38,608 nucleotides of DNA from an uncultured Dehalococcoidia bacterium (GCA_964596665.1 CAZQVD010000001.1:1-38608); one strand, 5' to 3'; numbered from the stretch's first letter, positions 3,796-23,922 are shown. Made by a program: numbers and translations. The notes: generated by a model not told the origin, from the sequence alone.

Positions 3796-4050
3796 ATGCG
3801 ACCAGGCGTTATCTTCGTTGGGCTTTTCGCGCTGCTAATCGCGGTGTACGCATTTCTGGCAAGCACGCTCGGCAGCGTCCTGACGTTCCTTCTGCAAGCC
3901 GCGATCGTCCTCGTGCTGCTGGCCGCCGCGGTATGGTTCCGCAGGCTCCGCACCGCCCAGGTTCGGCATGCGGAGGAGCGCGAGCCCGAGGCGGCACTCA
4001 CCGCCCAAGCGGATACCGAAACCGCCGACCGGATGCAGAAGACCAGCTAG
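3796..4050 (+). CDS. Small membrane protein, two predicted TM helices, unknown function
   Basis: 84 aa. AGGTGGA precedes the ATG. Two hydrophobic segments (VIFVGLFALLIAVYAFLA and VLTFLLQAAIVLVLLAAAVWF) are followed by a charged tail. I recognise no family. Confidence 0.55.
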   Translation: MRPGVIFVGLFALLIAVYAFLASTLGSVLTFLLQAAIVLVLLAAAVWFRRLRTAQVRHAEEREPEAALTAQADTETADRMQKTS

Positions 4051-7227: not shown

Positions 7228-7238
7228 AGGAGTACCAG

Positions 7239-7454
7239 TTGGACACCTATATCAGCCTGGCCGTGATCCTCATGGTCGTCCTCTTGGTCGCGAGCATCCT
7301 CATGCAGGTGAAGGGCGCGGGCGGCGGTCTGTTCGGCGGCGGAGCGGCCCAGTTCAGGACGCGGCGCGGCGTAGAGAAGACGCTGTTCCAGACCACCATC
7401 GGTCTCGCCGTGATGTTCGTGATTCTTGCGGTCCTGAACCTCACTATCTCGTAA
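7239..7454 (+). CDS. secG: Preprotein translocase subunit SecG
   Basis: 71 aa. Two TM helices flank a Gly-rich loop (KGAGGGLFGGGAAQF). TTG start 6 nt after GAGGAG. Confidence 0.85.
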   Translation: MDTYISLAVILMVVLLVASILMQVKGAGGGLFGGGAAQFRTRRGVEKTLFQTTIGLAVMFVILAVLNLTIS

Positions 7455-7481
7455 CACCACGACCCGTGCTCAGCGCGAAGC

Positions 7482-8405
7482 TCAGGCCTCCTCGGTTTGG
7501 GCGAGCTCGGCGAAGTAATCCGCGATCGTGCGCGAGCCATGCGCCGGTGCTATCAGGTCCGTCATCTGAGCGAATGTGTCGAACTGGGCGACGTCGTAGT
7601 TGTGGCGCCCGCGCAGCCAGGTCACCCGCAAGCCAAGCCCTGTCAGCACCTTGCGCTGGTTGCCTATCTTGGGGTCGGTGCCCAACGCCTCGAAGGCGAG
7701 CTCGGCGATGCGCCTGCGGGTGAGTATCTCCGGACCACCAATCTCTACCTCCTTCTCGTGGCCAACCAGCGCGTCCACGCACGCCGCCGCCAGCTCCTGC
7801 TCATGGATAGGATTCACCTGGGCATCGCCATCCTGGAGGAGCCGCACTTGGCCCTTGGCCGCCCGGCGAAGGACGGACGTGAGCGAGGCGAACACGCTGT
7901 TCGAGCGCACGACTAGAGGGTCGACCTCAGCGCGCCGCAACGCCGCGGAGAAGGATTCATGGGCACGGATGTATTCCATCGATCCCAGCATCTTGCCACC
8001 CGAGACTCCCAGGTAACCGAATCGGCGCACGCCCGCCCGCTCCGCCACCGCCAGCAGGTTCCGGTTGCCGAAGTCGTCGATCTGGGGGAACGAATGCTTG
8101 CTGGCAAATATCCCCACGGGCTTGGGGCTGGCCCCCGCGCACGAGAACACGAAGTCGACGTCGTCGCATACGCCGCGCATGGACACCGGGTTGCGCAGGT
8201 CGGCGACGAAGATCTCGTCCACGTCGGCGGTCATGCCGCGGGGGTCCCTTGTCAGTGCGCGAACCCACCAGCCCCGCGCCATGAACTCGGATACAATCTG
8301 GGTGCCGATGGTGCCTGAGGCCCCCACAACCAGCACGCGTTGGGATCGGGGCGGCCCTTCAGGCTCCCTGGCGCGGGCGGTGCGTCTGCGGCGTCGTGAG
8401 TCCAT
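7482..8405 (-). CDS. NAD(P)-binding protein, atypical SDR/NmrA-like family
   Basis: 307 aa. Rossmann motif VLVVGASGTIGTQIV follows an Arg-rich N-terminus. The start codon is uncertain. Confidence 0.75.
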   Translation of the reverse strand: MDSRRRRRTARAREPEGPPRSQRVLVVGASGTIGTQIVSEFMARGWWVRALTRDPRGMTADVDEIFVADLRNPVSMRGVCDDVDFVFSCAGASPKPVGIFASKHSFPQIDDFGNRNLLAVAERAGVRRFGYLGVSGGKMLGSMEYIRAHESFSAALRRAEVDPLVVRSNSVFASLTSVLRRAAKGQVRLLQDGDAQVNPIHEQELAAACVDALVGHEKEVEIGGPEILTRRRIAELAFEALGTDPKIGNQRKVLTGLGLRVTWLRGRHNYDVAQFDTFAQMTDLIAPAHGSRTIADYFAELAQTEEA

Positions 8406-8424
8406 GGCACGCTCGCTCCGGGTT

Positions 8425-9861
8425 CTACAGCCCCAGCTTGCTGGGGTTCAGGATGCCCTGAGGGTCGACGGCGTGCTTGAGCCCACGAGCCAGGATGAGC
8501 GCGTCGCCCCACTCGCGGGTCGCCCACGAGCCAAGCTTCGTTCCCAGGCCGTGGCAGTACTCCACGCCGCCGCCCATGGCGATGGCCGCATCGAGCATCT
8601 CATCCACCGCCGCCCACAGCGGAGGCTGGGCGAGCTCGGCATGAGCGTCGTCGGGGTCGGCGACGAACAGCGAGAAGAGCCGGGGGTCCGTCCATACTGC
8701 CGCCTCGCGGATCGCCAAGGCACGGCGAGCGGTAACTTGTTCGGCGAACCGTTTGTATTCGAGTACCTTGCCCACGGGCAGCGACACATGCAGGTAGTCG
8801 GCCGAGCGCCATCGGCGCTCACGCCAGCGCTCCGTCGGGCGTAGCGGCCTGGTGCGGTCGCGCCAACGCTCGGCAACGGCGTGGCGCGTATGCCAGTACC
8901 GCTGGGTCGCACCGGGCCCGATATCCACGCCACCGCTTGATGTTGCCTCCATCAGCGCGCGGGTACGCTGTGCGACCACCTCTTCGCGATAGCCTTCGAA
9001 TCCCAGGTACAGCAGGCAAGGGAAGCCTTCGGCGTTCTCGCCGGGCTCCTCCTCCGTCAGGTCAACGAGCGCCGGGACCAGGCCGAGGGCGAAAAGCCGC
9101 GTCACCACCGGATAGCCCGCCTCGAACGACGCGAACCCGACCGTGGCGAAGGCTCGCTCCTCCGGCTCGGCGAAGAGACGGATGGTCGCTTCAGTGATGA
9201 CGCCCATCGTCCCCTCGGCGCCGGCGAACAAGCCGTTCAGCATGGGGCCGCTGCTCTGGCGCGTCAGGGGCCGGGTGCGGACGATCCGGCCATCGCCTAA
9301 GACGACCTCGAGGGCCGCGACCTGCTGACCCATGGAGCCGTACTTGCTCGCGCGATAGCCCACCGAATCGGTGGAGATCGCGCCGCCTACTGTTGCGATG
9401 GGCACGCTCCACGGATCGTGGCCCAGGATCAGCCCATGGCCCCTTGCGGCTCCGTCCAAGTCCGCCAGATAGACGCCGGGCTGGACGACAGCGAGGCGTT
9501 CTTCGCGGCGCACCTCCAGCAAGCGGTTCATGCGGCGCAGATCCAACGCGATCCCCCCCACCAGCGGTATCACCGCGCCCATCACGCCGGTACCTCCTCC
9601 GTAGGGTATGACCGGCACGCCCGAGCCTGCTGCGAGCCGAACCACGTCGGCCACCTGCGCTGTGGTCTCCGGACACACAGCCACCGCTACCCGCGACTCG
9701 ACGGCGGCAGCCTCAGTCATGAGGCGGCGGGGGTCGATAGCGTCGAACGAAAGCCGCTCGAGCGTCTCTTCATCGGTCGATACAGCGTCGACGCCGAGCA
9801 AGGAGCGGAGCGTGTCGAGGAAGCTCTTCGAGGGTGGGGCGGATTCGAGGGTAGGAGGCAC
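8425..9861 (-). CDS. FAD-binding oxidoreductase (FAD-linked oxidase, GlcD-like)
   Basis: 478 aa. PCMH-type FAD-binding N-domain (VIPYGGGTGVMGA) and a C-terminal FAD-oxidase domain ending in LNPSKLGL. GTG start. Confidence 0.85.
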   Translation of the reverse strand: MPPTLESAPPSKSFLDTLRSLLGVDAVSTDEETLERLSFDAIDPRRLMTEAAAVESRVAVAVCPETTAQVADVVRLAAGSGVPVIPYGGGTGVMGAVIPLVGGIALDLRRMNRLLEVRREERLAVVQPGVYLADLDGAARGHGLILGHDPWSVPIATVGGAISTDSVGYRASKYGSMGQQVAALEVVLGDGRIVRTRPLTRQSSGPMLNGLFAGAEGTMGVITEATIRLFAEPEERAFATVGFASFEAGYPVVTRLFALGLVPALVDLTEEEPGENAEGFPCLLYLGFEGYREEVVAQRTRALMEATSSGGVDIGPGATQRYWHTRHAVAERWRDRTRPLRPTERWRERRWRSADYLHVSLPVGKVLEYKRFAEQVTARRALAIREAAVWTDPRLFSLFVADPDDAHAELAQPPLWAAVDEMLDAAIAMGGGVEYCHGLGTKLGSWATREWGDALILARGLKHAVDPQGILNPSKLGL

Positions 9862-9864
9862 GGG

Positions 9865-11238
9865 CTACCCTGAAACGATCCGCCATGTGGTGCCGTCGGC
9901 CGAGTCGGTCAGCTCGACGCCCATGGCGGTGAGCTCGTCGCGCACAGCATCGGCTTCCGCGTAGCTCTTGGCAGAGCGTAGCTCGGTACGGCGCGCCACC
10001 AGATCGGTGATGCGGTCGGCCACGTCGGCGGAGACCTCCGCCTGAAGCTCGCTGAACGTGAGGCCCAGCACCCCACCGCCCAGCTCCGCCAGCGTCCGCT
10101 GCGCCACGGAAACGTCGCGGCCCGCCTCCGACTCACGATTGATGTCACGAGCCAGATCGAATAAGGCGGCGATGGCCTGGGGCGTGTTGAGGTCATCGTC
10201 CATGGCAGCGATGAACCGCTGGCGGTGCGGTGCAGCATCCAGCTCGCCTGCCACGCCTGGGTTGGCCGAGGCGGCGACGGCCTGGCGCACGCGGCTCGCG
10301 GCCCGCTCCGCACCTGCGAGCGCGTCGTCGGAGTAGTAGCCGGGGCCCCGGTAGTGGGCATTCAGCATGCCGAGGCGAATCGCATCGGCCGAGTACCGGC
10401 GGAGCGCATCGCGTATCGTTACCAGGTTACCCAGAGACTTGCTCATCTTCTCCTGGTCCAAGTGCAGCAGACCGTTGTGGACCCAATAGCGCGCGAATGG
10501 CTGCGCGCCAGTGAACGCCTCGCTCTGTGCGATCTCGTTCTCGTGGTGTGGGAAGACCAGGTCCTGACCACCTCCGTGGATGTCGATGGTGTCGCCCAGA
10601 TAGCGCAGCGCCATCGCCGAGCACTCGATGTGCCAACCCGGCCTGCCGGGCCCCCACGGGCTGTCCCAAGCGGGCTCACCTGGCTTGGCTCCTTTCCACA
10701 GGGCGAAATCCATGGGGTGCTCTTTCTCCGCTCCCGCTTCCACGCGAGCACCCGCGCGCATGGTGCCCAGCGAGCGGTGGCTGAGCTTGCCGTACGCGGG
10801 GTCGCGCGTGACCCGGAAGTACACATCGCCGCCCGAGGCGTACGCGAAGTCTATGTCGACGAGACCGGCGATCACCTCGATGATCTTGGGGACCTCCTGC
10901 GTGGCCCGTGGGTAGACGTCCGCCTCGCGCACATTCAGCGCGGCCATGTCACGCATGTATTCGTCGCTGTGCTGATCCGCCAGGGCCTCGACTGTGGTGC
11001 CCTGGGCCTGTGCGCGGTCGATGAGCTTATCGTCGATGTCGGTGAAGTTCTGGACGTGGCGCACCTTGAAGCCGCTGAACTCGAGGTAGCGGTGCAGCAC
11101 ATCGAATACGATGTAGCTCATCGCGTGGCCGACGTGGGCGGTGGCGTACGGCGTGATTCCGCACACGTACATCTTGACTTCGTCGCCGGCGGGGGTGAAT
11201 TCGGTTTTGTCGCCGGTGAGGGTGTCGGAGAGTTTCAT
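9865..11238 (-). CDS. cysS: Cysteine--tRNA ligase
   Basis: 457 aa. Class I signatures HVGH (in TAHVGHAMSY) and KMSKS (in EKMSKSLGN). 4-nt overlap with ispF. Confidence 0.97.
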   Translation of the reverse strand: MKLSDTLTGDKTEFTPAGDEVKMYVCGITPYATAHVGHAMSYIVFDVLHRYLEFSGFKVRHVQNFTDIDDKLIDRAQAQGTTVEALADQHSDEYMRDMAALNVREADVYPRATQEVPKIIEVIAGLVDIDFAYASGGDVYFRVTRDPAYGKLSHRSLGTMRAGARVEAGAEKEHPMDFALWKGAKPGEPAWDSPWGPGRPGWHIECSAMALRYLGDTIDIHGGGQDLVFPHHENEIAQSEAFTGAQPFARYWVHNGLLHLDQEKMSKSLGNLVTIRDALRRYSADAIRLGMLNAHYRGPGYYSDDALAGAERAASRVRQAVAASANPGVAGELDAAPHRQRFIAAMDDDLNTPQAIAALFDLARDINRESEAGRDVSVAQRTLAELGGGVLGLTFSELQAEVSADVADRITDLVARRTELRSAKSYAEADAVRDELTAMGVELTDSADGTTWRIVSG

Positions 11239-12573: not shown

Positions 12574-13959
12574 ATGTTCCTCAAGCAGTACTTCCTTGAA
12601 TGCCTCGCTCAATCCTCGTACCTGATCGGCGACGAGGTCAGCGGTCAGGCGGCCGTCGTCGACCCGAGACGGGACGTCGATCAGTACGTCGACGATGCGG
12701 CCGCTCAGGGCCTGCGTATCGCCCACGTAATCCTCACCCACTTCCAGGCCGATTTCATATCTGGCCACCTCGAGCTGCGAGACCGCGTCGGCGCCGAGAT
12801 TCATCTTGGCGCTCGCGGCGAGGCGGAGTATGCGCACACGCCAGTCCACGACGGCGACGTGCTCGACCTCGGCGACGTTGGCATCGTGTTCCGTGAGACG
12901 CCTGGGCACACGGTGGAGAGCATCTGCGCGCTGGTGTTCGACCGGACGCTGAGCGAGACGAAGCCCCATGCGGTGCTCACCGGAGACACCCTGTTCATCG
13001 GCGACGTGGGACGGCCGGACCTGATGGCATCTAAGGGGTACTCCGCCGAGGAACTCGCGGGCTGGCTCTACGACTCGCTCCACGACAAGCTCCTCGGTAT
13101 ACCGGACGAAACGCTAGTCTATCCTGCCCATGGAGCAGGCTCGCTGTGTGGCCGCAACATGAGCACGGACACCTTCTCGACCTTCGGCGTGCAGCGGGCG
13201 TACAACTATGCGCTGCAACCCATGACCCGCGAAGAGTTCATCGAGATTGCCGTCGCGGATCTGCCGCCCTCACCCGCTTACTTCAGCTTGGACGCCGAGC
13301 TGAACCGCAAAGAGCATCCCTTCAGAGCTCACGAGCAGCCTAGCTCGCTGTCGCTGGCCGAAATGCTTTCCATGGCCGACCATGGAGCACAGGTGCTTGA
13401 TGCACGCGACTCGACGGATTTCGCTGCCACGCACATGCACGGCAGCACCAACATCCCCCTAGATGGCCCATTTGCCTTGTGGGCTGGGTCGGTGCTGGAT
13501 TTCGAGCGGCCCATCGTGCTCATCGTCAATCCTGGCGGCGAGGCGGAGGTGGGGATGCGGCTCGCTCGCGTGGGGCTGGAGAATGTGGCCGGGTTCCTCG
13601 ACGGTGGCATGCAGGCCCTACAGGGGCATCCTGACCTGCTGGACCGCACGGAGCGCATCACCGCACGCACGCTGGCGGAGCAGCTCAGCAGCGCCGATCC
13701 ACCGGCGGTGGTCGACGTGCGCCAGCGGGCCGAGTGGGTCGCAGGTCACATCGAGGGCAGTATCAACATACCGTTGGGAGAGCTTGCCGGCCGGGTGAGC
13801 GAGCTGCCGGACCGAGCCTTCGCGCTGCATTGCCTGGCTGCATATCGCTCGTCGATCGCCGCGGGGATCCTGCAAGGTGCGGGGGTCACCCGCTTCACTG
13901 AGCTCATCGGCGGCATAGAGGCGTGGGAGGCATCCAAGCTGCCGACGGTCACCGGCTGA
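12574..13959 (+). CDS. Metallo-beta-lactamase-fold protein fused to two rhodanese domains (persulfide-dioxygenase/rhodanese-type architecture)
   Basis: 461 aa. The N-terminal MBL motif reads THFQADFISGH. The C-terminal rhodanese domain has an active-site-like loop HCLAAYRS; the first rhodanese-like domain has no Cys loop. GGAGAGG precedes the ATG. Confidence 0.85.
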   Translation: MFLKQYFLECLAQSSYLIGDEVSGQAAVVDPRRDVDQYVDDAAAQGLRIAHVILTHFQADFISGHLELRDRVGAEIHLGARGEAEYAHTPVHDGDVLDLGDVGIVFRETPGHTVESICALVFDRTLSETKPHAVLTGDTLFIGDVGRPDLMASKGYSAEELAGWLYDSLHDKLLGIPDETLVYPAHGAGSLCGRNMSTDTFSTFGVQRAYNYALQPMTREEFIEIAVADLPPSPAYFSLDAELNRKEHPFRAHEQPSSLSLAEMLSMADHGAQVLDARDSTDFAATHMHGSTNIPLDGPFALWAGSVLDFERPIVLIVNPGGEAEVGMRLARVGLENVAGFLDGGMQALQGHPDLLDRTERITARTLAEQLSSADPPAVVDVRQRAEWVAGHIEGSINIPLGELAGRVSELPDRAFALHCLAAYRSSIAAGILQGAGVTRFTELIGGIEAWEASKLPTVTG

Positions 13960-14817: not shown

Positions 14818-17289
14818 CTATGCACCCGCCGCCGCCTTCTCGGGCACCGCCTTCTCGGGGGGTGCCTCCTTGCGGGCAAACGCGAGCTTGTCCTTCACGG
14901 CGTCCACCATCACCGAATCGCCGTTCTTGTATTCGCCCGCCAAGATTCGCTTGGCGATCTCGTTCTCCACGTGGCGCTCGATGGCGCGACGCAACGGGCG
15001 GGCACCGTAGACCGGGTCATAGCCCTCCTCGACCAGCCAATCCTTGGCGGCCTTCGTGAGCTCGACGCCGATGCCGCGGCCGGAGAGGCGCTCGCGCACT
15101 TGGTCGACCATAAGATCGACGATCCGAGCCAGCTCCTCCTGCGTGAGCTGGTGGAAGACGATGAACTCGTCCACCCGGTTCAGGAACTCAGGCTTGAACG
15201 AGGACTTCAGCGCATCCATCACCGCGCGACGGTGCCGCTCCTCGTCGGTGGTCGTCTGGGTGCCCGACTGGAACCCGATGCCCGCTTTGCTGAACTCTGC
15301 CGTACCTATGTTGGAGGTCATGATGATGATGGTGTTGCGGAAGTCCACCGTGCGGCCATGGCCATCGGTGAGGCGACCGTCGTCGAGCACTTGGAGCATC
15401 ACGTTGAAGACGTCCGGGTGCGCCTTCTCGATCTCGTCGAAGAGCACCACGCGATACGGACGGCGGCGAACCGCCTCGGTGAGCTGTCCCGCCTCGTCGT
15501 AGCCGACGTAGCCTGGAGGCGCGCCGATCAGCCGCGAGACGGTATGGCGCTCTCCGTACTCGGACATGTCCACGCGCACCATGTTCTCCTCATCGTCGAA
15601 CAGGTATTCGGCGAGTGCGCGTGCAAGCTCCGTCTTGCCCACACCTGTGGGCCCTAGGAACATGAAGCTGCCGATGGGTCGGTGCTCGTCGCGCAGGCCC
15701 GCCCGAGCGCGGCGGATGGCATCGGCAACGGCGACAAGAGCATCCTGCTGCCCGATGACGCGCTGGTGGAGGCGATCCTCGAGGTGGAGCAGGCGCTGCG
15801 CCTCCTCCTCCAGCAGGCGGTTCGCGGGGATCCCGGTCCACTTGGCGATCAGGTCAGCGATGTCGGACTCCCGCACCACCATGCCGGAGTGGTCACGGCC
15901 CAGGAAATCGTTGCGTTGGACGTCGAACCGCTCCTCCTTCTGGACGCGCTCGGACTTGGTGCGCGCGGCGGCCTCGTAGTCGCCACGTTGGGCGTACGAC
16001 TCCTCTTCGTCTTGCAGGTACTTGATCCGCTGGCTCAGCTCGTTGAGCTCCGTCGGGAGGCTCTCGGCGTCCAGCCGCAGCTTCGAGGCGGCCTCGTCGA
16101 TCAGGTCGACCGCCTTGTCCGGCAGGTGGCGGTCAGAGATGTACCGTGAGCTGAGCCGCGCCGCGGCTTCGAGCGCCGCGTCCTCAAAGGTCACCTTGTG
16201 GTGGGCCTCGTAGCGAGGCTGCAGGCCCCGCAGAATCTCGATGGTCTCCTCCACAGTGGGCTCGTCGAGCCACACGGGCTGGAAGCGCCGCTCAAGCGCC
16301 GCGTCCTTCTCGATGTGCTTGCGATACTCGTCGGGTGTGGTCGCGCCGATCACCTGAAGGTCACCGCGGGCGAGGGCCGGCTTCATGATGTTGGCCGCGT
16401 CGATGCCACCCTCGGCGGCTCCCGCGCCGACCACCGTGTGGAGCTCGTCGATGAACAGGATGACCTCGCGCTGAGCCTCCTTCATCTCGTCGATCACCGA
16501 CTTCAGGCGCTCCTCGAACTCGCCACGGAACTTGGAGCCGGCGACGATGCCGGCCATGTCGAGCGCGAGGACACGCTTGCCGCGCAGCGATTCGGGCACG
16601 TCGTCGGAGATGATGCGCTGTGCCAGGCCCTCGGCGATGGCGGTCTTGCCGATACCGGCGCCACCGATGACTACGGGGTTGTTCTTGGTGCGCCTCGTCA
16701 ACGTCTGCATGACGCGCCGGATCTCCACGGTTCGGCCGATGACCGGGTCGAGCTTGCCCGAACGGGCGAGGTCCGTCAGATCGAGGCTGTACTTGTCAAG
16801 CGCCTGATAGCGGCTCTCGGCGCGGGGATCGGTGACCCGGTGGCCACCGCGGACCTGCTGCAGGCCCTGGTAGACCTTCTCCTTGTCGACGCCGTGGCGA
16901 GCGAGGGTCCTGGCTGAATCGCCGTCCTCGTCGGAGATGGCGGCGACGAACAGGTGCTCGGCACCGATGTACTCGTCATGCAGCCGCGCGACCTCCTCTT
17001 TGGCCAGGTCCAACATGTTCATGGCGCGAGGCGTCGGGTGGATCTGGCTCGGCTGGCTGGCAAGCTTCGGCGTCGCCTCCAGTACCTGCTCGATCTCGGC
17101 GCGCACGGTGTCGACGTTCACGCCCAACTCGCCGAGGAGCTGTGCCGGCACGCCCTTGGGGTTCTCGAGCAGCGCCAGCATCACGTGCTCCACGTCCCAC
17201 TGGGCGTGGTGATACCTGCGGACCACGTCGTAGGACGAGCCGATCGCCTCCTGCGCTTGCTCGGTGAAATCTTCCTGCTTGAAAACCAT
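14818..17289 (-). CDS. clpC: Clp/Hsp100 AAA+ ATPase, ClpC-type (short middle domain, IGF loop)
   Basis: 823 aa with two Walker A motifs ([16 protein letters not shown]). About 90 aa separate KAVDLIDEA from WTGIP, which is ClpC-length and not the roughly 160 aa of ClpB. A GIGF tripeptide loop in NBD2 is typical of ClpP-docking Hsp100s. The segment around [10 protein letters not shown], just upstream of NBD1, is ClpB-like. Confidence 0.85.
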
Positions 17290-17349
17290 GCCCTCCCTCG
17301 ACTTCCTATCCCGTGGCGGAATCGCCCTAGCCGCCTTAACTGGCTCTTT

Positions 17350-17688
17350 CTATCGCTGAGTAAGCTCCTCGACCTGCCGCTCTAGCTCAGCCATCCGCGA
17401 GCTCATGCGAATGATGACGTCGACGCCGGCGAGGTTGATCCCGAGATCGTCTATCAGCGATCTGATCCAGCGCGCGCGTCCGACGTCGTGCGGCGAGTAC
17501 ATGCGTATGTTGCCGCGGGAGCGCGCGGGCGCGACGAGCCCGATGCGCTCGTAGTACCTGAGCGTTTGGGCGTGGACTCCGACCATGCGCGAGGCAACGC
17601 TAATCACGTAGCAGGGCTCGTCCCCGCCGACGCCATCAAACGCGATGCGCGCTTCGAACTCACTCTGAGCGATTCCTCGCTGTGCCAT
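17350..17688 (-). CDS. hspR: MerR-family heat-shock repressor HspR
   Basis: HTH YVISVASRMVGVHAQTLRYYERIGLVAP...GINLAGVDVIIRM matches HspR. I chose ATG 17686-17688 (GGGAG 5 nt upstream) over the track's GTG at 17715, which has no SD. Confidence 0.85.
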   Translation of the reverse strand: MAQRGIAQSEFEARIAFDGVGGDEPCYVISVASRMVGVHAQTLRYYERIGLVAPARSRGNIRMYSPHDVGRARWIRSLIDDLGINLAGVDVIIRMSSRMAELERQVEELTQR

Positions 17689-17743
17689 GCGTGCTCCCTG
17701 TTTCCCAACCACCACGCGTCACTGTCACACCCCGGTCCGGCGC

Positions 17744-18667
17744 TCACGCGCCGGTCTTGCCTATCTCTCTCAGCCGCTCGAAGAGGTCTCGTTCCTCCGA
17801 GCCGATCGCCTCCGGCAGGACCACGCGCACGGTGGCCAGCAGATCTCCGTGGGATGCCGCCCCGCTCTTCTTGCGGGGCATCCCTTTGCCTTTAAGCCGG
17901 AACACCTTGCCGTTCTGCGTTTCCGCGGGCACCTTAAGCGCCACACGCTTGCCTTCGATCGTCTCGACCTCCACCTCGCCACCGAGCATCGCGTCCACGA
18001 GTGGAACTGGAACCGCAAGGAGGAGGTCGTCACCCTTGCGCTCGAAGAGCCGGTGCGGCGCCACCGTGATCGTGAGATACAGATCGACGCCGAGGCCGCC
18101 TTTGGCCTGCGCTCCCCCATGTACCTTGGAGCCGGACTGTACTCCGGCCGGAATCTTCACCTCCAGCCGTTTCCCCTTCTCTCCGGTGAGCAGCTGTGGC
18201 GGTGTTTGCACCATGCGGGCCGCGCCCGCGAAGGCCTCCTCAAGGGTGATCGTCACCGCAACGTCGGCGCGCTGGGGGCCGAGGTTCTCCTCGAACGTCG
18301 TCCGCCGCTCGGAGCCGAAGATGTCGCCGAATATGTCGCTCATCGAGCCGAAGCCTCCATCACCGCTCCGTCTACCACGCCGCGCTCTGGTGAACCAGGA
18401 GTAAGGGGAATCTCCACCCCCTCCACCAGACCGCATGTGGTCGGCATTCCGCCAGTTGGCTCCGAATTGGTCGTATTTCTTACGGCTCTCTCCGTCGGAG
18501 ATCACCTGATACGCTTCGTTCAGCTCCTTGAAGCGAGTTTCGGCATCCTTGTCACCCTGGTTCACGTCCGGGTGGTACTTGCGGGCCAGCCGGCGGTACG
18601 CCGAGCGAACCTCCTTCCCGGAGGCCCCGCGCTCGACGCCCAGGATGTCGTAGTAGCTCTTCGCCAT
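17744..18667 (-). CDS. cbpA: J-domain co-chaperone without Zn finger (CbpA/type II DnaJ-like)
   Basis: 307 aa. J domain YYDILGV...KYHPD, a G/F-rich linker and C-terminal substrate-binding domains. No Cys residues, so no CxxCxGxG zinc centre. Confidence 0.88.
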   Translation of the reverse strand: MAKSYYDILGVERGASGKEVRSAYRRLARKYHPDVNQGDKDAETRFKELNEAYQVISDGESRKKYDQFGANWRNADHMRSGGGGGDSPYSWFTRARRGRRSGDGGFGSMSDIFGDIFGSERRTTFEENLGPQRADVAVTITLEEAFAGAARMVQTPPQLLTGEKGKRLEVKIPAGVQSGSKVHGGAQAKGGLGVDLYLTITVAPHRLFERKGDDLLLAVPVPLVDAMLGGEVEVETIEGKRVALKVPAETQNGKVFRLKGKGMPRKKSGAASHGDLLATVRVVLPEAIGSEERDLFERLREIGKTGA

Positions 18668-18739
18668 CGTTCTCTCTTGCCGTGGGCCTTCTGCAACCGA
18701 GGCTACGGCCCCGACACCCGGTCAAAGGTACCGCGTGGA

Positions 18740-18758
18740 TTGAGCGGTGCGCGCTCAA
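18740..18758. promoter_or_regulatory. HAIR-like operator (HspR-associated inverted repeat)
   Basis: TTGAGC (18740-18745), a 7-nt spacer, then GCTCAA (18753-18758), located 73 nt upstream of the cbpA ATG. The HAIR consensus is CTTGAGT-N7-ACTCAAG. Confidence 0.6.
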
Positions 18759-18933
18759 CCATGGTGAGTTCGCTCGGGTATCCGAGCCACATGTCTAACA
18801 ATACATATCTTAACGTACTTTAGTGTCACACTATCAATCCCGTCGGGCCGGTGCCTAGGATCCGGCCTGCGTGCAGGTCGCTAATCGAAACGCCGGAACC
18901 GCACCACGAAGCCGTGGAGCACCTTCGGTAGCA

Positions 18934-18963
18934 TTGACCGGTCGCCCCGCTGCGGGATATGAT
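18934..18963 (+). promoter_or_regulatory. Promoter of the ThrC-like/NIL/MoaD cassette
   Basis: TTGACC (18934-18939), an 18-nt spacer, then TATGAT (18958-18963). This would leave a leader of about 100 nt before ATG 19074. Confidence 0.5.
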
Positions 18964-19073
18964 GGCGGTTCGAGGTGGGCCGCCCGGACACGTCTTGTGG
19001 ACCGGGGGCCGGTGCAGCGCGGAGTAGGCGAACCGCCGCGCGCACGCCGGGTTGTTGGAACAAGGGGGTTGCC

Positions 19074-20303
19074 ATGTCTTACGTTTCCTCGATGCGATGC
19101 AAGGAATGCTCACGGGAATATCCGGTGGGCGCGTTCAATGTGTGCGATTTTTGCTTCGGTCCATTGGAGGTCGTCTACGACTACAATGCCATCGCGGAGG
19201 TCACCTCGCGAGAGCGCATCATGAGCGGCCCGCACTCGCTGTGGCGCTACGCGGACTTCCTTCCGGCCGACTACAACCCGGATGTGGACATCAACGCGGG
19301 CTTCACGCCGCTGATCCGATCCAAGGGTCTCGCGGAGCATCTGGGGTTGAACGAGCTCTGGATCAAGAACGACAGTGTGAATCCGTCCTACTCATTCAAG
19401 GACCGCGTCGTCGCGGTCGCGGCGGCCAAGGCGCTCGAGCTGGGTTTCGACACGATCGCATGCGCGTCGACGGGGAATCTGGCGTGTGCGGTCGCGGCCC
19501 ACGCCGCGCGGGGCGGGCTGAAGGCGTACGTGTTCATCCCGTCGGACCTAGAAGCGGGTAAGGTGCTGGGAGCTGCGATCTACGGCCCGACGATGATCGC
19601 GATTGACGGCACCTACGACGACGTGAATCGGCTCTGCAGCGAGCTCGCGGAGGAACACCCGTGGGCGTTCGTGAACATCAACGTCCGCCCCTTCTACGCC
19701 GACGGCAGCAAGACACTCGGCTTCGAGGTGGCGGAGCAACTTGGCTGGCGCGCCCCGATGCATGCAGTGGTGCCGTCGGCATCGGGTGCCATGTTCACGA
19801 AGATCTACCAAGGGCTGAAGGAGTTCGAGAGGACCGGGTTGATCGACTCCGTGCAAACCAAGATGCACAGTACGCAGCCGCGTGGCTGCTGCCCTATCGC
19901 GACGGCTTACGAAGAGGGTCGATTCGTGATCCGGCCGATCAAGGCGAGCAGCCTGGCGACGTCGCTTGCAATCGGGAATCCGGCAGACGGCTATTATGCC
20001 CTGAAGACCATCGAGGCCTCGGGCGGCTCCGCCGTCATCGCCGAGGAGCATGAGGTGGCGCAGGGCGTGAAGCTGCTGGCTGAGACGGAGGGCATCTTCA
20101 CCGAGGGCGCGGGCGGCGTGGCGGTCATGGGCCTGAAGCACCTCGTGGAGCTGGGCCGCATCCAACCCGACGAATCGACCGTGGTCTACATTACCGGCAA
20201 CGGGCTGAAGACCACCGAACTGGTGGCAGATGTGGTGCACCCTCTGCACATCGAGCCCACGGTGGAAGCGTTCGAGCAGGCGATAGCAGCGAGCACCGGC
20301 TGA
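19074..20303 (+). CDS. thrC: Threonine synthase-family PLP enzyme with N-terminal Zn-ribbon
   Basis: The track ORF starts at 18975. I prefer ATG 19074 (AAGGGGG upstream), giving MSYVSSMRCKECSREYPVGAFNVCDFC. That N-terminus has a CxxC...CxxC ribbon. The PLP-lysine motif is NPSYSFKDR. It may not be a true ThrC (see findings). Confidence 0.85.
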   Translation: MSYVSSMRCKECSREYPVGAFNVCDFCFGPLEVVYDYNAIAEVTSRERIMSGPHSLWRYADFLPADYNPDVDINAGFTPLIRSKGLAEHLGLNELWIKNDSVNPSYSFKDRVVAVAAAKALELGFDTIACASTGNLACAVAAHAARGGLKAYVFIPSDLEAGKVLGAAIYGPTMIAIDGTYDDVNRLCSELAEEHPWAFVNINVRPFYADGSKTLGFEVAEQLGWRAPMHAVVPSASGAMFTKIYQGLKEFERTGLIDSVQTKMHSTQPRGCCPIATAYEEGRFVIRPIKASSLATSLAIGNPADGYYALKTIEASGGSAVIAEEHEVAQGVKLLAETEGIFTEGAGGVAVMGLKHLVELGRIQPDESTVVYITGNGLKTTELVADVVHPLHIEPTVEAFEQAIAASTG

Positions 20304-20324
20304 ACGGAAGACGGAGGTCGAGCG

Positions 20325-20561
20325 ATGCAGCGCGTTCGGTTCACGTTCTTGGACCGGCTCATCAAAGAACCGGTGATCTACCAAATGGGGCACGACTTCG
20401 GCGTGGTGACGAATATCCGGCGAGCCGACATCCAAGAGGGCATCGGTTGGGTGCTGCTCGAGCTGGAGGGTGAGGACGACGAGATCGAGCGCGCGCTCAA
20501 GTGGGTTCGCTCGTTAGGAGTCCGCGTTGACCCGGCGGTCAGCGACGTAGTAGAAGGCTAG
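20325..20561 (+). CDS. Stand-alone NIL-domain protein
   Basis: 78 aa. FLDRLIKEPVIYQMGHDFGVVTNIRRADIQEGIGWVLLELEG resembles the NIL domain found at the C-terminus of MetN-type ABC ATPases. GGAGG upstream of the start. Confidence 0.7.
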   Translation: MQRVRFTFLDRLIKEPVIYQMGHDFGVVTNIRRADIQEGIGWVLLELEGEDDEIERALKWVRSLGVRVDPAVSDVVEG

Positions 20562-20594
20562 GTAAGCTAGTCCTGCCATATCAGGGAGCGAAAC

Positions 20595-20870
20595 ATGAGC
20601 GTCACGGTACGCATACCCGGTCCGCTGCGGCGGATCACCAACGGCGAGAACAAAGTGGAGGTCGAGGGAGAGAACCTCGGCGGACTGATTAGCGCCCTCG
20701 AGGACCAGTACCCCGGGATGAGGGAGCGCCTGCTGGACGAGGAGGGCAAGCTCCGCTACTTCGTCAACCTCTACCTGAACAACGAGGACGTGCGGTTCCT
20801 CGAGGGTCTCGAGACCGCGCTCAAGGCAGGCGACGAAGTCAGCATCGTTCCTGCGGTCGCTGGGGGCTAG
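20595..20870 (+). CDS. MoaD/ThiS-family sulfur-carrier protein, C-terminal GG
   Basis: 91 aa. The sequence suggests a beta-grasp-type fold and ends in ...[19 protein letters not shown] upstream of the start. Confidence 0.85.
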
Positions 20871-20881
20871 CCCCCACTCCC

Positions 20882-21589
20882 TTGCAACAGATTCCGGACG
20901 ACGACGAGCTCGAGGGACTCGAAGAGTTCCATGAGCGCCAATTGGATGAGTTCGAAGAGCTCAACGCGTCCACGGCCTCGGCCACATTCCTCGACCAGCG
21001 CTGGTGGAAGTGGGCGGGCCTTGCAATAGCCGGCCTGATCCTGCTCACGTTCATGCTGCCGCTGCTCTCGCCTTTCTTTGACCGCAGTCCCGCCCCCAGC
21101 GCAGCCGAGCCGGACATCGTCACGCTGCCCGACTTCGTGCTGCCGACCGCCTACGGAACGAACCTTCGCCTCTCCGACGAGCTGCGCTCGAACGACGTGG
21201 TCGTGCTCGTGTTCTACCGAGGTTTCTTCTGAGGGATCTGCCGCGATCAGCTCGTCGAGCTACAAGACGCCTACGCAAGCATCAGGGCCGAGGATGCCCA
21301 GCTCATCGCCATCAGCATCGATGACGTCGATGACGCCCGCCGGATGGCGGAGCACGCGAGGGCCAGCTTCCCGATCCTCGCCGACGAGGGCCACGCCGTC
21401 ACCAGCTCTTACGGCTTGTACGACCTACTCGGCGATGGAGTGTCGGTCCCGGCTGCATTGTTCCTGAACAGCGATAGCGAGCTGCTGGGAGCCTACGTGG
21501 GAGAATCGATCGGCGACCGCTTGCCGACAGACGCAATCATCGACTTGCTGCGCCGCGCCAACGGCACGGCGGCGGGCACCGACAGCTAG
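20882..21589 (+). CDS. Membrane-anchored AhpC/TSA-redoxin family protein with in-frame TGA (candidate selenocysteine, UxxC) at 21230-21232
   Basis: Track ORFs 20882..21232 and 21344..21589 share a frame. The intervening 111 nt are stop-free and encode conserved redoxin sequence. The motif reads VLVFYRGFF-TGA-GIC. The start codon is uncertain (TTG 20882). Confidence 0.65.
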
Positions 21590-21593
21590 ACGC

Positions 21594-23258
21594 CTACTCG
21601 GCCAGCTCCGCGATCACCTGCGCGACCAAATCTGGCGGCACGCGCCGATGAAGGCTCGCACGCCCAATCGCCTCGAGAAACACCCACGATACGTCTCCCG
21701 CGACCGATTTCTTGTCGCGGGTCATCGCTTCGAGGATCGCATCGCGGCCGACGCCGGCATACGACGTGGGCAGGCCGAAGCGGCGCAGCAGGGCAGCTTG
21801 TCGCTCCACGAGCTCGGCCGGCGTAACGCCATGGGCCATGCCGAGCCGCGCCGCGCCGACCATGCCGACGGCCACGGCCTCGCCATGCAGGTAGCCCTCG
21901 TACCCCGCCGCAGTCTCCAGGCCGTGCCCGATGGTGTGCCCGTAGTTGAGCAGCGAGCGAGCGCCACTGGTTTCCCGCTCGTCCTCCGTGACGATGCGTG
22001 CCTTCACGGCGGCGTTGCGCGCAACGATCTCAGTAGTCAGCTCGGGGTCGATGGCCAGCAGCGCCTCGGCCTTCGACTCGTAGACGTCGACCAGCCCCGC
22101 TTCGAGCGCCAGGCCATGCTTCAGCGCCTCGGCCCACCCTTCGCGCAGGGCGCGGCCCGGGAGCGTGCGCAATGCGGAGACATCCGTCAACACGAATGCC
22201 GGATGGTAGAAGGCACCAACCAGATTCTTCGCGACGGGCAGGTCGACCGCCGTCTTGCCCCCGATGCTCGAATCCACCATAGCAGTGAGCGACGTGGGCA
22301 CGTGCACGAGCCGGATGCCACGCAGATACGTCGCAGCGACGAAGCCTGCCAGGTCGCCGACGACACCACCCCCGACGGCCACGATGGCATCGCGGCGCTC
22401 GACGCGCTGCTCGGCCAGCCAGTCGTAGAGCGCAGCCGCGCTGGCAAGCGTCTTGCTGGCCTCACCGGGCGGCACGGTGAACACGCCCATCTCGATGCCT
22501 GCGCGATGGAGGGAACGCTGTGCCGAGCGTCCGTAGTTGTTCAGCACGTTGCTGTCGGAGACGATGAAGGCGCGTCCCGAGAAGCCGGTGTCCGAGAGGC
22601 GCTGGCCCAATTCGGCTTCGAGCACGTCCCAGCCGACGTAGATCGGGTAGGCTCCTGAATCGGCGATGACGGTGGCAGCGTGGAGCGGGTCGCCATGCCA
22701 CGTATGCGGTGCGCCGATGCGGCGCCATGCGCGGATCACCTCGTGCGCCGCCTGCTCCACGGTGAGGCCGTCGGTGACTACCGGTAGGTGGGCAAGCGCG
22801 TAGGCCCACTGCCGCTCCCGCTTCAGCGATTCGACGACCTCCAGCGGGTCGCGGCCCTCCGCGCTCAGCATCGGACGGACCATGGACTCGGCAGACTCTC
22901 CCTGCGGCACCGAGGACAGGCGAGCGTAGATCGTCTCCGGGCGCGCGTCGAGGGTTACGACCAGACCCGCGTCCAGCATCTGCGAGCGACAGGTATCCTG
23001 CACTATGGTTCCGCCTCCCATGGATGCGACGCTGCGCTCCCGAGCCGCAAGCTCCGTCACCACCGCGCGTTCGACCGCCCTGAAGCCATCCTCGCCATCC
23101 TCGGCGAAGATGCGCTCGACCGGCTTGCCGGCGCGCTCGACGATCAGCTCGTCGGCGTCCACGAAGTCCCAGCCGAGCAGGCGCGCGACGCGGCGGCCAA
23201 CGGCGCTCTTGCCGGTGCCGGAGAAGCCAACGAGGAATATGCGCTCGCGGTCGGTCAT
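21594..23258 (-). CDS. aroKB: Bifunctional shikimate kinase / 3-dehydroquinate synthase (AroK-AroB fusion)
   Basis: 554 aa. The N-terminal part is AroK-like (IFLVGFSGTGKSAVGR P-loop). The C-terminal part is AroB-like (GGGVVGDLAGF, NYGHTIGHGLE). Confidence 0.92.
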   Translation of the reverse strand: MTDRERIFLVGFSGTGKSAVGRRVARLLGWDFVDADELIVERAGKPVERIFAEDGEDGFRAVERAVVTELAARERSVASMGGGTIVQDTCRSQMLDAGLVVTLDARPETIYARLSSVPQGESAESMVRPMLSAEGRDPLEVVESLKRERQWAYALAHLPVVTDGLTVEQAAHEVIRAWRRIGAPHTWHGDPLHAATVIADSGAYPIYVGWDVLEAELGQRLSDTGFSGRAFIVSDSNVLNNYGRSAQRSLHRAGIEMGVFTVPPGEASKTLASAAALYDWLAEQRVERRDAIVAVGGGVVGDLAGFVAATYLRGIRLVHVPTSLTAMVDSSIGGKTAVDLPVAKNLVGAFYHPAFVLTDVSALRTLPGRALREGWAEALKHGLALEAGLVDVYESKAEALLAIDPELTTEIVARNAAVKARIVTEDERETSGARSLLNYGHTIGHGLETAAGYEGYLHGEAVAVGMVGAARLGMAHGVTPAELVERQAALLRRFGLPTSYAGVGRDAILEAMTRDKKSVAGDVSWVFLEAIGRASLHRRVPPDLVAQVIAELAE

Positions 23259-23280: not shown

Positions 23281-23922
23281 TCATGGCCGCGGTGGCCGGG
23301 TCCGTACTGTGCCGTCCCACTCGTCCAGAGGCGCGCAGTGCCAGTACCAGTTGTCTCCCACCGGAGGTCGGTCCGGCAGGGCCAGGCGGCCGGTCGCCCA
23401 CCGCAACGCCTCCCAGGGCTGGCGTATGTCGGCCACCCACGGGAAGAGACGGGCCAGTATCCGCGCGCTCAGCTCGTCTGGAGGATGGAACGCGAGTCCG
23501 AGGCCACCGGCGATGTCGGAGGTATGGAGCAGCAGCTCGGTGCAGGCCATGGCGGAATAGCCCGAGACGTCGGCCATCCCGGCCGGATGGAACGTTCGCG
23601 CATCCGGCGGCACGCTCCGCAGGATGGCGGCGACGATGTGCGCCATGGTGCCCACGACCGATATCAGATCGTCAACGGATTTCTTGGCGTCGCCGGCACG
23701 CACCGACGGGGAACGGGTCTGCGCTCGGCTCGCAAGCTGGCCCGCGTAGAAAGCGAGCCCATCGGCCATGTGGTCCAACGTGCGGCGGCAGTCCCAGTCC
23801 AAGCCCTGGGCGGGTTCGGACCAATCGAACTCGGCGGCGCCGGCCAGCGCTGCGCGCGCGAGCGCTCCTGCCTCGGCGACGTCATCCGGTCCAAGCGGCC
23901 GGGACTCGATCTGACTCGCCAT
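23281..23922 (-). CDS. DinB-like / maleylpyruvate-isomerase N-terminal domain family protein
   Basis: 213 aa. The His-containing helical pattern (TLDHMADGLAFYA..., ELLLHTSD) resembles the DinB/MDMPI_N superfamily. The assignment rests on family resemblance only. Confidence 0.6.
   Translation of the reverse strand: MASQIESRPLGPDDVAEAGALARAALAGAAEFDWSEPAQGLDWDCRRTLDHMADGLAFYAGQLASRAQTRSPSVRAGDAKKSVDDLISVVGTMAHIVAAILRSVPPDARTFHPAGMADVSGYSAMACTELLLHTSDIAGGLGLAFHPPDELSARILARLFPWVADIRQPWEALRWATGRLALPDRPPVGDNWYWHCAPLDEWDGTVRTRPPRP

Follow-up and report, generated by a model that had tools for sequence, protein, structure and literature searches.

What does a gene annotated as threonine synthase make when the genes directly behind it encode a NIL-domain protein, a sulfur carrier and a redoxin? 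This question is raised by a cassette of four genes in a 38,608-nt stretch of DNA from an uncultured Dehalococcoidia bacterium (GCA_964596665.1, CAZQVD010000001.1:1-38608; the whole stretch is referred to below as the window). A first-pass annotation, made from the sequence alone, had suggested that the enzyme may be a homocysteine synthase, and the comparisons of sequence and gene order described here support that suggestion. A core function in homocysteine/methionine synthesis is highly likely, and the cassette is probably the Chloroflexota version of the MetM/MetO route, in which homocysteine is made with a protein thiocarboxylate. The core would belong to a pathway known since 2024; what is new is a conserved and sometimes fused NIL protein, a leader RNA without a match in Rfam and an embedded probable selenoprotein (Table 1).

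An exhaustive HMMER search, together with a scan in which each species was represented by a single genome, gave a set of 80 loci (at least 53% identity) spanning Chloroflexota, Cyanobacteria, Nitrospirota, Nitrospinota, Acidimicrobiia, Aquificaceae, Elusimicrobia, Planctomycetia, Methylomirabilota, Omnitrophota and Syntrophaceae. The window enzyme is a fold-type II protein of the ThrC family, dependent on pyridoxal 5'-phosphate (PLP), and the lysine of its SFKDR motif (K109) is invariant in the alignment. Its N-terminal ribbon carries a CxxC...CxxC pattern (C9, C12, C24 and C27) that is invariant in one alignment of relatives and is found in 79 of 86 clade members vs none of seven canonical ThrCs. 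The phylogeny proposed in the first-pass annotation sets the enzyme apart from canonical ThrC: in a neighbour-joining (NJ) tree a single clade is made up of all carrier-linked Zn-ribbon proteins, that of the window among them, and a representative of the Micromonosporaceae, and the solved threonine synthases of Aquifex, Bacillus and Thermus (2zsj, 6cgq and 1uim) fall outside it. A second, canonical thrC, which had also been put forward as informative, was found in four relatives (L032, L038, L046 and L082), where a shorter copy lies no more than about 8 kb from the carrier-linked paralog and groups with the solved ThrCs. The window enzyme shares 54–60% identity with members of its clade in other phyla vs 30–38% with canonical ThrC (35–38% with the solved ThrCs), and paralogs within one genome are 34–38% identical.

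At 28 positions the two groups each conserve a different residue, the level of conservation being 90% or more in the clade and 85% or more in canonical ThrC. T88, S155, R160 and N188 of Thermus thermophilus ThrC correspond to L136, N203, Y208 and S237 of the window enzyme, and at least 95% of the carrier-linked proteins share each of these replacements. We take these four Thermus residues to bind the phosphate, of substrate or product, by which the addition of water is directed, a role seen in Thermus structures and reportedly going back to Omi in 2003 and Murakawa in 2011. The window enzyme also clusters with actinobacterial proteins that are both carrier-linked and preceded by a riboswitch for S-adenosylmethionine (SAM), and an indirect link to MetM of Streptomyces albulus is given by a cyanobacterial clade member reported to be 51.6% identical to it. 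As a separate observation, five distant ThrC-like relatives (34–38% identity, with an N-terminal alignment like that of the query), namely P0207, P0247 and P0268 of ~615 aa and P0226 and P0248 of ~495 aa, have a LeuA_dimer (allosteric) or PadR (DNA-binding) domain at the C-terminus, which makes them further regulatory variants of the family.

The carrier of the window ends in ...SIVPAVAGG with nothing after the GG, an ending that is near-invariant across phyla. In 73 of the 80 species genomes its gene directly follows that of the enzyme, and a NIL gene adjoins the cassette in 37 of them; these are counts of the kind that the first-pass annotation had proposed for related genomes. The best match of the carrier in PDB is CysO of Mycobacterium tuberculosis (3dwg_C, 6.1e-24), in line with the likeness to CysM/CysO drawn at first pass. 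It scores 66 bits with the NCBIfam model SAMP1 (cutoff 60) and 17 bits with the molybdopterin model TIGR01682 moaD, for which 66 are needed. In L049 (Aquificaceae) the clade enzyme is present and the carrier gene is not adjacent.

Regulatory elements ahead of the enzyme gene also point to methionine. In 6 of 19 loci Rfam placed a SAM-I riboswitch immediately ahead of the enzyme gene and on its strand, and a covariance model built from five of these six hits gave a match abutting the gene start in 14 of the 80 genomes (all eight Actinomycetota and six Chloroflexota), plus two metagenome loci. In other lineages the cassette lies beside genes for the machinery that would activate the carrier. The locus L026 (Syntrophaceae) reads redoxin, Rrf2, enzyme, fused carrier and NIL, rhodanese-ThiF, JAMM, PALP and Thi4, and in Nitrospirota a ThiF-type E1 gene lies beside the cassette in seven of eight loci and a JAMM gene in six of eight, the full pattern being CysM-like, ThiF, enzyme, carrier, NIL, ThiF and JAMM. 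These co-clusters, the separate clade, the carrier linkage and the SAM-I riboswitches are the evidence on which a homocysteine synthase is predicted in place of a threonine synthase. Since calling genes by the greedy longest open reading frame (ORF) was unreliable in GC-rich loci, where long antisense ORFs occur, it was replaced by targeted profile searches seeded with Pfam-verified ORFs.

A number of further features were observed in these clusters. Two ThiF-type E1 paralogs of ~270 aa each flank the enzyme, carrier and NIL genes in seven Nitrospirota loci (L034, L040, L047, L052, L059, L074 and L075; ~6000-11200), which also hold a CysM-like PALP enzyme and, in five of the seven, a JAMM gene. 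This arrangement suggests that in Nitrospirota a single carrier system may serve both cysteine and homocysteine synthesis. In the Chloroflexota, extra sets of PALP, carrier, E1 and JAMM genes lie beside the MetM-like cassette in L021 (75-2738) and L030 (6132-9875); the carrier of L021 may be fused straight to a ThiF-type E1, its post-GG sequence being ...MTPEMVERYSRHL. Regulators of the Rrf2 family recur nearby in L021, L026, L030 and L068.

The first-pass annotation had pointed to a Streptomyces route using MetM and MetO, and this was correct. In its account of Hasebe et al. (2024), the GapMind 2026 preprint names the MetO carrier, Mec, MoeZ and MetM as the proteins of the pathway and calls MetM 'often misannotated' as threonine synthase, and PMC12172450 places a SAM riboswitch upstream of S. 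albulus metM, with metO adjacent to it. The window cassette is like this system in having a ThrC-homologous PLP enzyme beside a ThiS/MoaD-type carrier ending in GG and in that threonine synthase is the name usually given to the enzyme, and the actinobacterial clade members have the SAM riboswitch upstream, as for metM. It is unlike it in that a stand-alone NIL gene is added between enzyme and carrier, a leader that matches no Rfam family stands in place of SAM-I, and a redoxin with a probable selenocysteine is appended, with no Mec or MoeZ gene nearby.

If the cassette works as the MetM/MetO route does, an E1-like enzyme of the MoeZ or ThiF type, encoded elsewhere in the genome, would adenylate and thiocarboxylate the Gly-Gly end of the carrier, and no C-terminal trimming would be required since the carrier already ends in GG. 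The ThrC-like PLP enzyme would eliminate phosphate from O-phosphohomoserine, the substrate we infer for it, and the carrier thiocarboxylate, not water, would add to the vinylglycine-type intermediate, with homocysteine arising directly or via a carrier-homocysteine adduct that is hydrolysed later. The HcyS/HcyF/HcyD/MetY route of Wolinella succinogenes uses MetY, an O-acetylhomoserine sulfhydrylase of fold-type I, whereas the window has a ThrC-like enzyme. From what is known of the family, the sulfur of homocysteine comes from a protein thiocarboxylate in that route as well, which is mentioned in PMC5764234.

The conserved leader in front of the enzyme gene was analysed in 19 distinct sequences. 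It opens with a hairpin, P1 (19011-19047), with a 13-nt loop, AGUAGGCGAACCG, at 19023-19035, which follows the pattern AGU(A/C/U)GGC(G/U)AACCG and is invariant save for the two single-base positions shown. The GGC.AACC of the loop is complementary to an invariant GGUUGCC at 19067-19073, between the Shine-Dalgarno sequence (19062-19068) and the AUG, and the loop stretch GGCGAACC is the pairing partner region of this anti-loop. Six pairs of P1 have changes on both sides; the covariation score was reached by none of 500 shuffles and was far lower in slid controls, and the same P1 was predicted independently by RNAalifold. A covariance model of the leader found 26 loci, in each of which the match abuts the gene start, with no other match in 0.98 Mb. 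The leader is confined to the clade of at least 80% identity, and other lineages are without it.

A known riboswitch upstream of the window gene was considered and set aside: nothing was found in Rfam at gathering threshold, and permissive searches gave no relevant match at E<=5 over 3.1 kb or at E<=10 over 131 nt. The leader is a candidate H-type pseudoknot masking the ribosome-binding site, and sister lineages have their SAM-I riboswitches at the same place. From its topology and position it may plausibly be a new riboswitch with a relation to SAM or methionine; that it senses a ligand is given somewhat less than an even chance. One promoter would drive the operon, and the pseudoknot over the ribosome-binding site would probably gate translation. 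With regard to context, an SDR gene is inserted between the heat-shock operon (described below) and the cassette in L003, and the upstream context of L004 is wholly different; the leader is kept in both.

The NIL protein scores 59.4 bits against PF09383 (gathering score 24) and consists of a NIL domain only, with no cysteine and no ferredoxin domain. Because its 78-aa sequence is without cysteine, it is not a sulfur relay. Nor is it a MetN ABC ATPase (TIGR02314, 22 bits vs 499.7), no ATPase domain lying N-terminal to it. The first iterative NIL profile was contaminated by carrier sequences through natural carrier–NIL fusions, and domain envelopes were used instead. The free NIL family has 2822 matches, of which the 120 listed are all 78–87 aa long and 72–100% identical to the window NIL; free NIL proteins are mislabelled in the databases as MetN ATPase or L-aspartate semialdehyde sulfurtransferase ferredoxin. 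NIL genes adjoining the cassette occur in eight phylum-level lineages: between enzyme and carrier in 23 of 33 Chloroflexota, after the carrier in all eight Nitrospirota, and in six of six further genomes, one each from Syntrophaceae, Elusimicrobiota, Omnitrophota, Planctomycetota and Methylomirabilota and one unclassified. An adjacent NIL gene was found in none of eight Actinomycetota, 22 Cyanobacteria, two Nitrospinota and one Aquificota. NIL as a substitute for the SAM riboswitch was also considered and rejected: in Chloroflexota a riboswitch was found in 4 of 10 loci without NIL vs 2 of 23 with it, which is a weak trend only, and the two co-occur in L029 and L033.

Evidence as to the partner of NIL comes from gene fusions. 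Single ORFs in which the carrier, AGG, a linker and NIL follow one another were found in L026, L061 and L068, and a database search with a fusion gave at least 120 clusters (P0391-P0510) of 171–179 aa having both Pfam domains; natural fusions span 171–190 aa overall, and most of the clusters are labelled 'molybdopterin synthase sulfur carrier subunit'. In an AlphaFold model of one fusion (mean predicted local distance difference test score 81.8, predicted template modelling score 0.61), the first half resembles CysO, SAMP1 and Urm1 and the second half the MetN C2/NIL domains. The best whole-length Foldseek match of this model is PDB 1v8c, the uncharacterised T. thermophilus 'MoaD related protein' of 168 aa, solved in structural genomics. 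After its ...PPVAGG comes a second domain, opening with a similar FPPxL motif, and the protein may be a solved relative of the carrier–NIL fusion. In our reading NIL would work with the carrier, and we predict with good confidence that the two are functionally tied. Fusion would mean that carrier and NIL are made in a 1:1 ratio and that JAMM-type cleavage at the GG is needed for release and activation of the carrier.

To our knowledge, MetN is the only setting in which a biochemical role has been defined for the NIL domain, and no link between NIL domains and thiocarboxylate carriers was found in full-text literature searches. The first-pass annotation had called the NIL protein unexplained at this locus; it is indeed not part of the published pathway, for which the account in the GapMind 2026 preprint lists four proteins, NIL not among them, but it is no oddity of the locus, being recurrent and sometimes fused. 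It had also pointed, correctly, to a NIL-ferredoxin protein in homocysteine synthesis: a NIL domain protein is genetically required in the DUF39 route of methanogens and Desulfovibrio (PMC5764234). The DUF39 pathway, with its NIL/ferredoxin protein (and COG2122), has in common with the window the involvement of a NIL protein, and in some databases the 78-aa protein carries its label. Unlike the MA1822-type NIL/ferredoxin of that route, the window NIL has neither a 4Fe-4S ferredoxin domain nor a cysteine, no DUF39 gene lies in the window, and the predicted substrate is O-phosphohomoserine vs aspartate semialdehyde. With the C2 (NIL) domain of MetN the protein shares Pfam family and fold, and its near-invariant N30 aligns with N295 of Escherichia coli MetN, mutation of which to alanine abolishes methionine binding by the C2 domain (PMC6233128). 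It is unlike the MetN domain in being free-standing, or carrier-fused elsewhere, and not the C-terminus of an ATPase.

With its ACT-like amino-acid-binding fold, NIL would associate with the carrier, would probably bind methionine, homocysteine or a related ligand, and would tune or escort the use of the carrier. The ten long homologs tested include no enzyme–NIL fusion and carry LeuA_dimer or PadR instead; this favours a carrier-centred role, and the retained Asn favours ligand binding. That NIL is specifically a regulator sensing methionine or homocysteine is possible, at clearly less than an even chance.

The redoxin encoded by the fourth gene contains an in-frame TGA, which stands at the first position of UxxC in 12 of 12 distinct orthologs (16 loci) and is never replaced by a Cys codon. 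Because the TGA is kept in all orthologs and the protein is strongly conserved on both sides of it, selenocysteine is the best reading, and the codon probably encodes it. Fifteen nt past the UGA lies a small and weak candidate hairpin resembling a selenocysteine insertion sequence (SECIS), with a 7-bp stem and a 3-nt loop beginning with G in 10 of the 12 orthologs; the window copy has 5 bp only. Besides two G-U wobbles, the hairpin shows a single compensatory change (L006), and it overlaps the conserved QLVEL codons. Free-energy folding gave no sign of a SECIS, the 76-nt region being no stabler than shuffles (z = +1.1). No selA, selB, selD or tRNA-Sec gene was found in the window. The N-terminal tail of the redoxin is strongly acidic (+3/-13), and one hydrophobic segment lies at ~aa 44-66. 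In its AhpC/TSA fold and in the replacement of the first Cys of CxxC by U, the protein is like the UxxC selenoproteins related to thiol:disulfide oxidoreductases and peroxiredoxins. It is unlike them in falling into no named family (similarity to NCBIfam SelL_rel_redox, WAxxUGC_long and PrxU is weak, all far under cutoffs), in its acidic tail and membrane anchor and in its place in a sulfur-amino-acid operon.

A number of observations weigh against the assignment to the MetM/MetO route or against parts of it. Neither an E1 of the ThiF, MoeB or MoeZ type nor a JAMM protease was found in the window by Pfam and profile searches, as had been noted at first pass, and no other met genes lie there. 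Adjacent NIL genes are absent from Actinomycetota and Cyanobacteria, the phyla in which the pathway or a homolog was studied; the co-occurrence of NIL with the SAM riboswitch speaks against a simple alternative regulator; the lack of enzyme–NIL fusions among the long homologs is unusual for allosteric domains of the ACT type; and the role given to NIL is drawn from its context and fold. All seven pairs of the pseudoknot are invariant, so that its helix has no covariation. The cyanobacterial clade member that is 51.6% identical to MetM reportedly had threonine synthase and threonine deaminase activities in vitro, both weak, and was not fully MetM-like in vivo (PMC12172450). This weak activity would fit a genuine threonine synthase with unrelated carrier and NIL neighbours, as would the best solved-structure matches of the window enzyme, which are threonine synthases, and its score with TIGR00260 (thrC; 258.7 vs a cutoff of 167.1), which yields the standard annotation; the full-length Zn-ribbon model NF006050 gives 277.7, just under its cutoff of 303. 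Such a reading is nonetheless most unlikely, since the enzyme is far closer to carrier-linked proteins of other phyla than to canonical ThrC and stands apart from the latter in the NJ tree, all four phosphate-site equivalents are replaced in its clade, some genomes hold a canonical copy close by, the carrier adjoins in nearly all, and the control found upstream is a SAM riboswitch, not threonine-related. A pathway like CysM/CysO/Mec of M. tuberculosis, turning O-phosphoserine into cysteine or some other thiol, is highly unlikely too. In the M. tuberculosis system sulfur likewise comes from a carrier thiocarboxylate, which acts as nucleophile, and the PLP enzyme is of fold-type II and works on an O-phospho amino acid, CysO is the closest solved relative of the carrier, and cysteate synthase, a ThrC-family enzyme evolved to accept O-phosphoserine, offers a precedent within the family. 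The window enzyme, however, is of the ThrC family and not of CysK/CysM (TIGR01136, 35 bits vs 344; CysM NF008735, 33 vs 413; ~22–23% identity to the CysM-like paralogs of the same clusters), and regulation by SAM riboswitches points to methionine; the NIL partner is a further difference from that system. The separate CysM-like gene beside the enzyme in Nitrospirota implies distinct roles, and the substrate of MetM is given as O-phosphohomoserine in the pathway account of the GapMind 2026 preprint.

Within the homocysteine route, two of the accessory proteins allow other roles. NIL could be a structural partner of the carrier, as MoaE is for MoaD, and not a ligand sensor, in which case it would hold the C-terminal tail of the carrier, shield the thiocarboxylate, or dock the carrier on the enzyme or E1. 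The fusions are always to the carrier and after its GG, a solved protein of the form carrier, GG and C-terminal domain exists in 1v8c, the Nitrospirota NIL gene lies between the carrier and ThiF genes, and the long homologs tested lack NIL; MoaX, a fused MoaD-MoaE, is a precedent in that a carrier joined via GG to its partner is cleaved to give the active complex (PMC4326299). In MoaX the partner domain and pathway differ and cleavage between carrier and NIL is only proposed, and the fold and the equivalent of MetN N295 suggest a retained small-molecule site. According to the same preprint account, the Streptomyces system runs without NIL, so that NIL cannot be an obligatory docking factor everywhere, and a purely structural role is considered rather unlikely. 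The redoxin, in turn, could be a working part of the pathway, reducing an acyl-persulfide or disulfide formed in carrier thiocarboxylation or repairing oxidised carrier, much as Urm1 is connected with the peroxiredoxin Ahp1 in eukaryotes. Its 11-nt spacer implies co-transcription, the gene order is kept in the 16 loci, another redoxin of the AhpC/TSA type lies upstream of the L026 operon, and the Urm1-Ahp1 complex is among the structural neighbours of the carrier, Ahp1 urmylation being a subject of the literature. Of 33 Chloroflexota species genomes, however, no more than four have the gene, all within a clade of at least 75% identity; the L026 redoxin, considered as an ortholog, was rejected as a different protein (23% identity, WCxxC motif); and the single membrane anchor resembles that of extracytoplasmic ResA/TlpA, so that the domain may face outward. 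Participation in the pathway is improbable. The first-pass annotation had counted the redoxin as a component of the cassette, which holds for its conserved order and for the closest clade only; it is probably not core to the pathway and is best described as a lineage-specific, co-transcribed addition.

A wider reading, built on the MetM/MetO assignment, is put forward tentatively and is itself on the doubtful side. NIL would be a dedicated module that partners the sulfur-donating machinery of two otherwise unrelated homocysteine routes (DUF39 and MetM/MetO). In the latter it would be complexed with the carrier, in some lineages after release by JAMM from carrier-GG-NIL, and would couple carrier use to methionine status; the leader would be a new riboswitch class (SAM, S-adenosylhomocysteine or methionine-related), and thiocarboxylation of the carrier would draw its reducing power from the UxxC selenoprotein.

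The cassette itself occupies 19074-21589, and its four co-directional genes, with spacers of 21, 33 and 11 nt, are arranged as described at first pass. The single promoter that had been proposed ahead of it is the sole promoter-like match in 18600-21800, where 0.3 would be expected from shuffles, and TTGAC and TAnnnT boxes at equal spacing precede orthologous operons too. The arrangement is not due to chance, because the gene order recurs in relatives with differing flanking genes.

Table 1. Features of the window cassette, SAM-I riboswitches ahead of related enzyme genes and carrier–NIL fusions
Feature	Locus	Coordinates	Strand	Basis or remark
Sigma-70-type promoter-like site	window	18934..18963	+	TTGACC-18 nt-TATGAT
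Conserved 5' leader, candidate H-type pseudoknot	window	19011..19073	+	alignment, covariation, covariance model
MetM-like ThrC-family PLP enzyme, 409 aa	window	19074..20303	+	PALP 1.7e-64
Stand-alone NIL protein, 78 aa	window	20325..20561	+	PF09383 3.3e-16
CysO/MetO-type beta-grasp carrier, 91 aa, C-terminal AGG	window	20595..20870	+	PF02597 5.7e-17
Membrane-anchored AhpC/TSA-family redoxin, UxxC	window	20882..21589	+	AhpC-TSA 2.2e-23, TGA read as Cys
In-frame TGA, probable selenocysteine codon (FYRGFF-U-GIC)	window	21230..21232	+	conserved in 12/12 distinct orthologs
Candidate SECIS-like hairpin CAGCUC-GUC-GAGCU	window	21248..21262	+	15 nt past UGA
SAM-I upstream of enzyme gene	L018	2545-2653		
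SAM-I upstream of enzyme gene	L024	7825-7935		
SAM-I upstream of enzyme gene	L029	2900-3012		
SAM-I upstream of enzyme gene	L033	7710-7806		
SAM-I upstream of enzyme gene	L050	1777-1975		
SAM-I upstream of enzyme gene	L056	7786-7884		
Carrier–NIL fusion ORF	L026	9288-9803		
Carrier–NIL fusion ORF	L068	6334-6906		
Carrier–NIL fusion ORF	L061	3041-3472		

In the window as a whole (GC content ~65%) 36 ORFs were called, and Pfam was run on 34 of them. The host is a marine, Dehalococcoidia-like member of the Chloroflexota, the nearest protein relatives being labelled as Chloroflexota or Dehalococcoidia metagenome-assembled genomes. The other genes have housekeeping roles (L1, L11, NusG, SecE, EF-Tu, GatB, CysS, IspDF, ClpB-HspR-DnaJ, AroKB, AroC, AlaS, OtsAB and others). 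A clpB-hspR-dnaJ heat-shock operon (14818-18667, minus strand), in which ClpB and DnaJ were identified from sequence and from the Pfam labels of the L002 and L003 orthologs, diverges from the cassette, and because of this the 406-nt intergenic region holds two regulatory regions. An ORF at 12574-13959 (plus strand), 5.1 kb upstream of the cassette, has a metallo-beta-lactamase fold and two rhodanese domains, as is typical of persulfide dioxygenases/sulfurtransferases, and no ORF was called at the matching position of L003; it was rejected as an E1, its profile match coming from the rhodanese domains only and a ThiF domain being absent. A 493-aa protein with a thioredoxin-like/AhpC-TSA domain fused to NHL repeats is encoded at 4047-5528 (minus strand), without obvious link to the cassette. 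The tRNA-Arg(tct) of 94 nt called by ARAGORN at 23692-23785 (minus strand) sits within a DinB/MDMPI-like ORF (23281-23922), was not seen by the Rfam tRNA model and is probably a false positive.

The cassette has a bearing on several lines of work. The context and fusions of NIL give a concrete, testable hypothesis for this domain and tie together two non-canonical homocysteine pathways, and the pseudoknot leader is a tractable riboswitch candidate for which the shortlist of ligands is obvious. Aquifex and Acidimicrobium have been flagged as being without any known homocysteine route (Price et al., 2018, PMC5764234); an enzyme of the MetM-like clade was observed in the groups to which they belong, namely the Aquificaceae (L049) and the Acidimicrobiia (L035, L066, L067, L077, L081, L083 and L084). 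A SAM-I riboswitch directly before a 'threonine synthase' gene can serve as a simple flag for misannotated genes of the MetM type. Behind 'threonine synthase' entries, which number in the thousands across Chloroflexota, Nitrospirota, Cyanobacteria, Acidimicrobiia and further groups, there is probably the homocysteine synthase of this recently found pathway, and this misannotation bears on the auxotrophies predicted for abundant uncultured bacteria of marine waters and groundwater.

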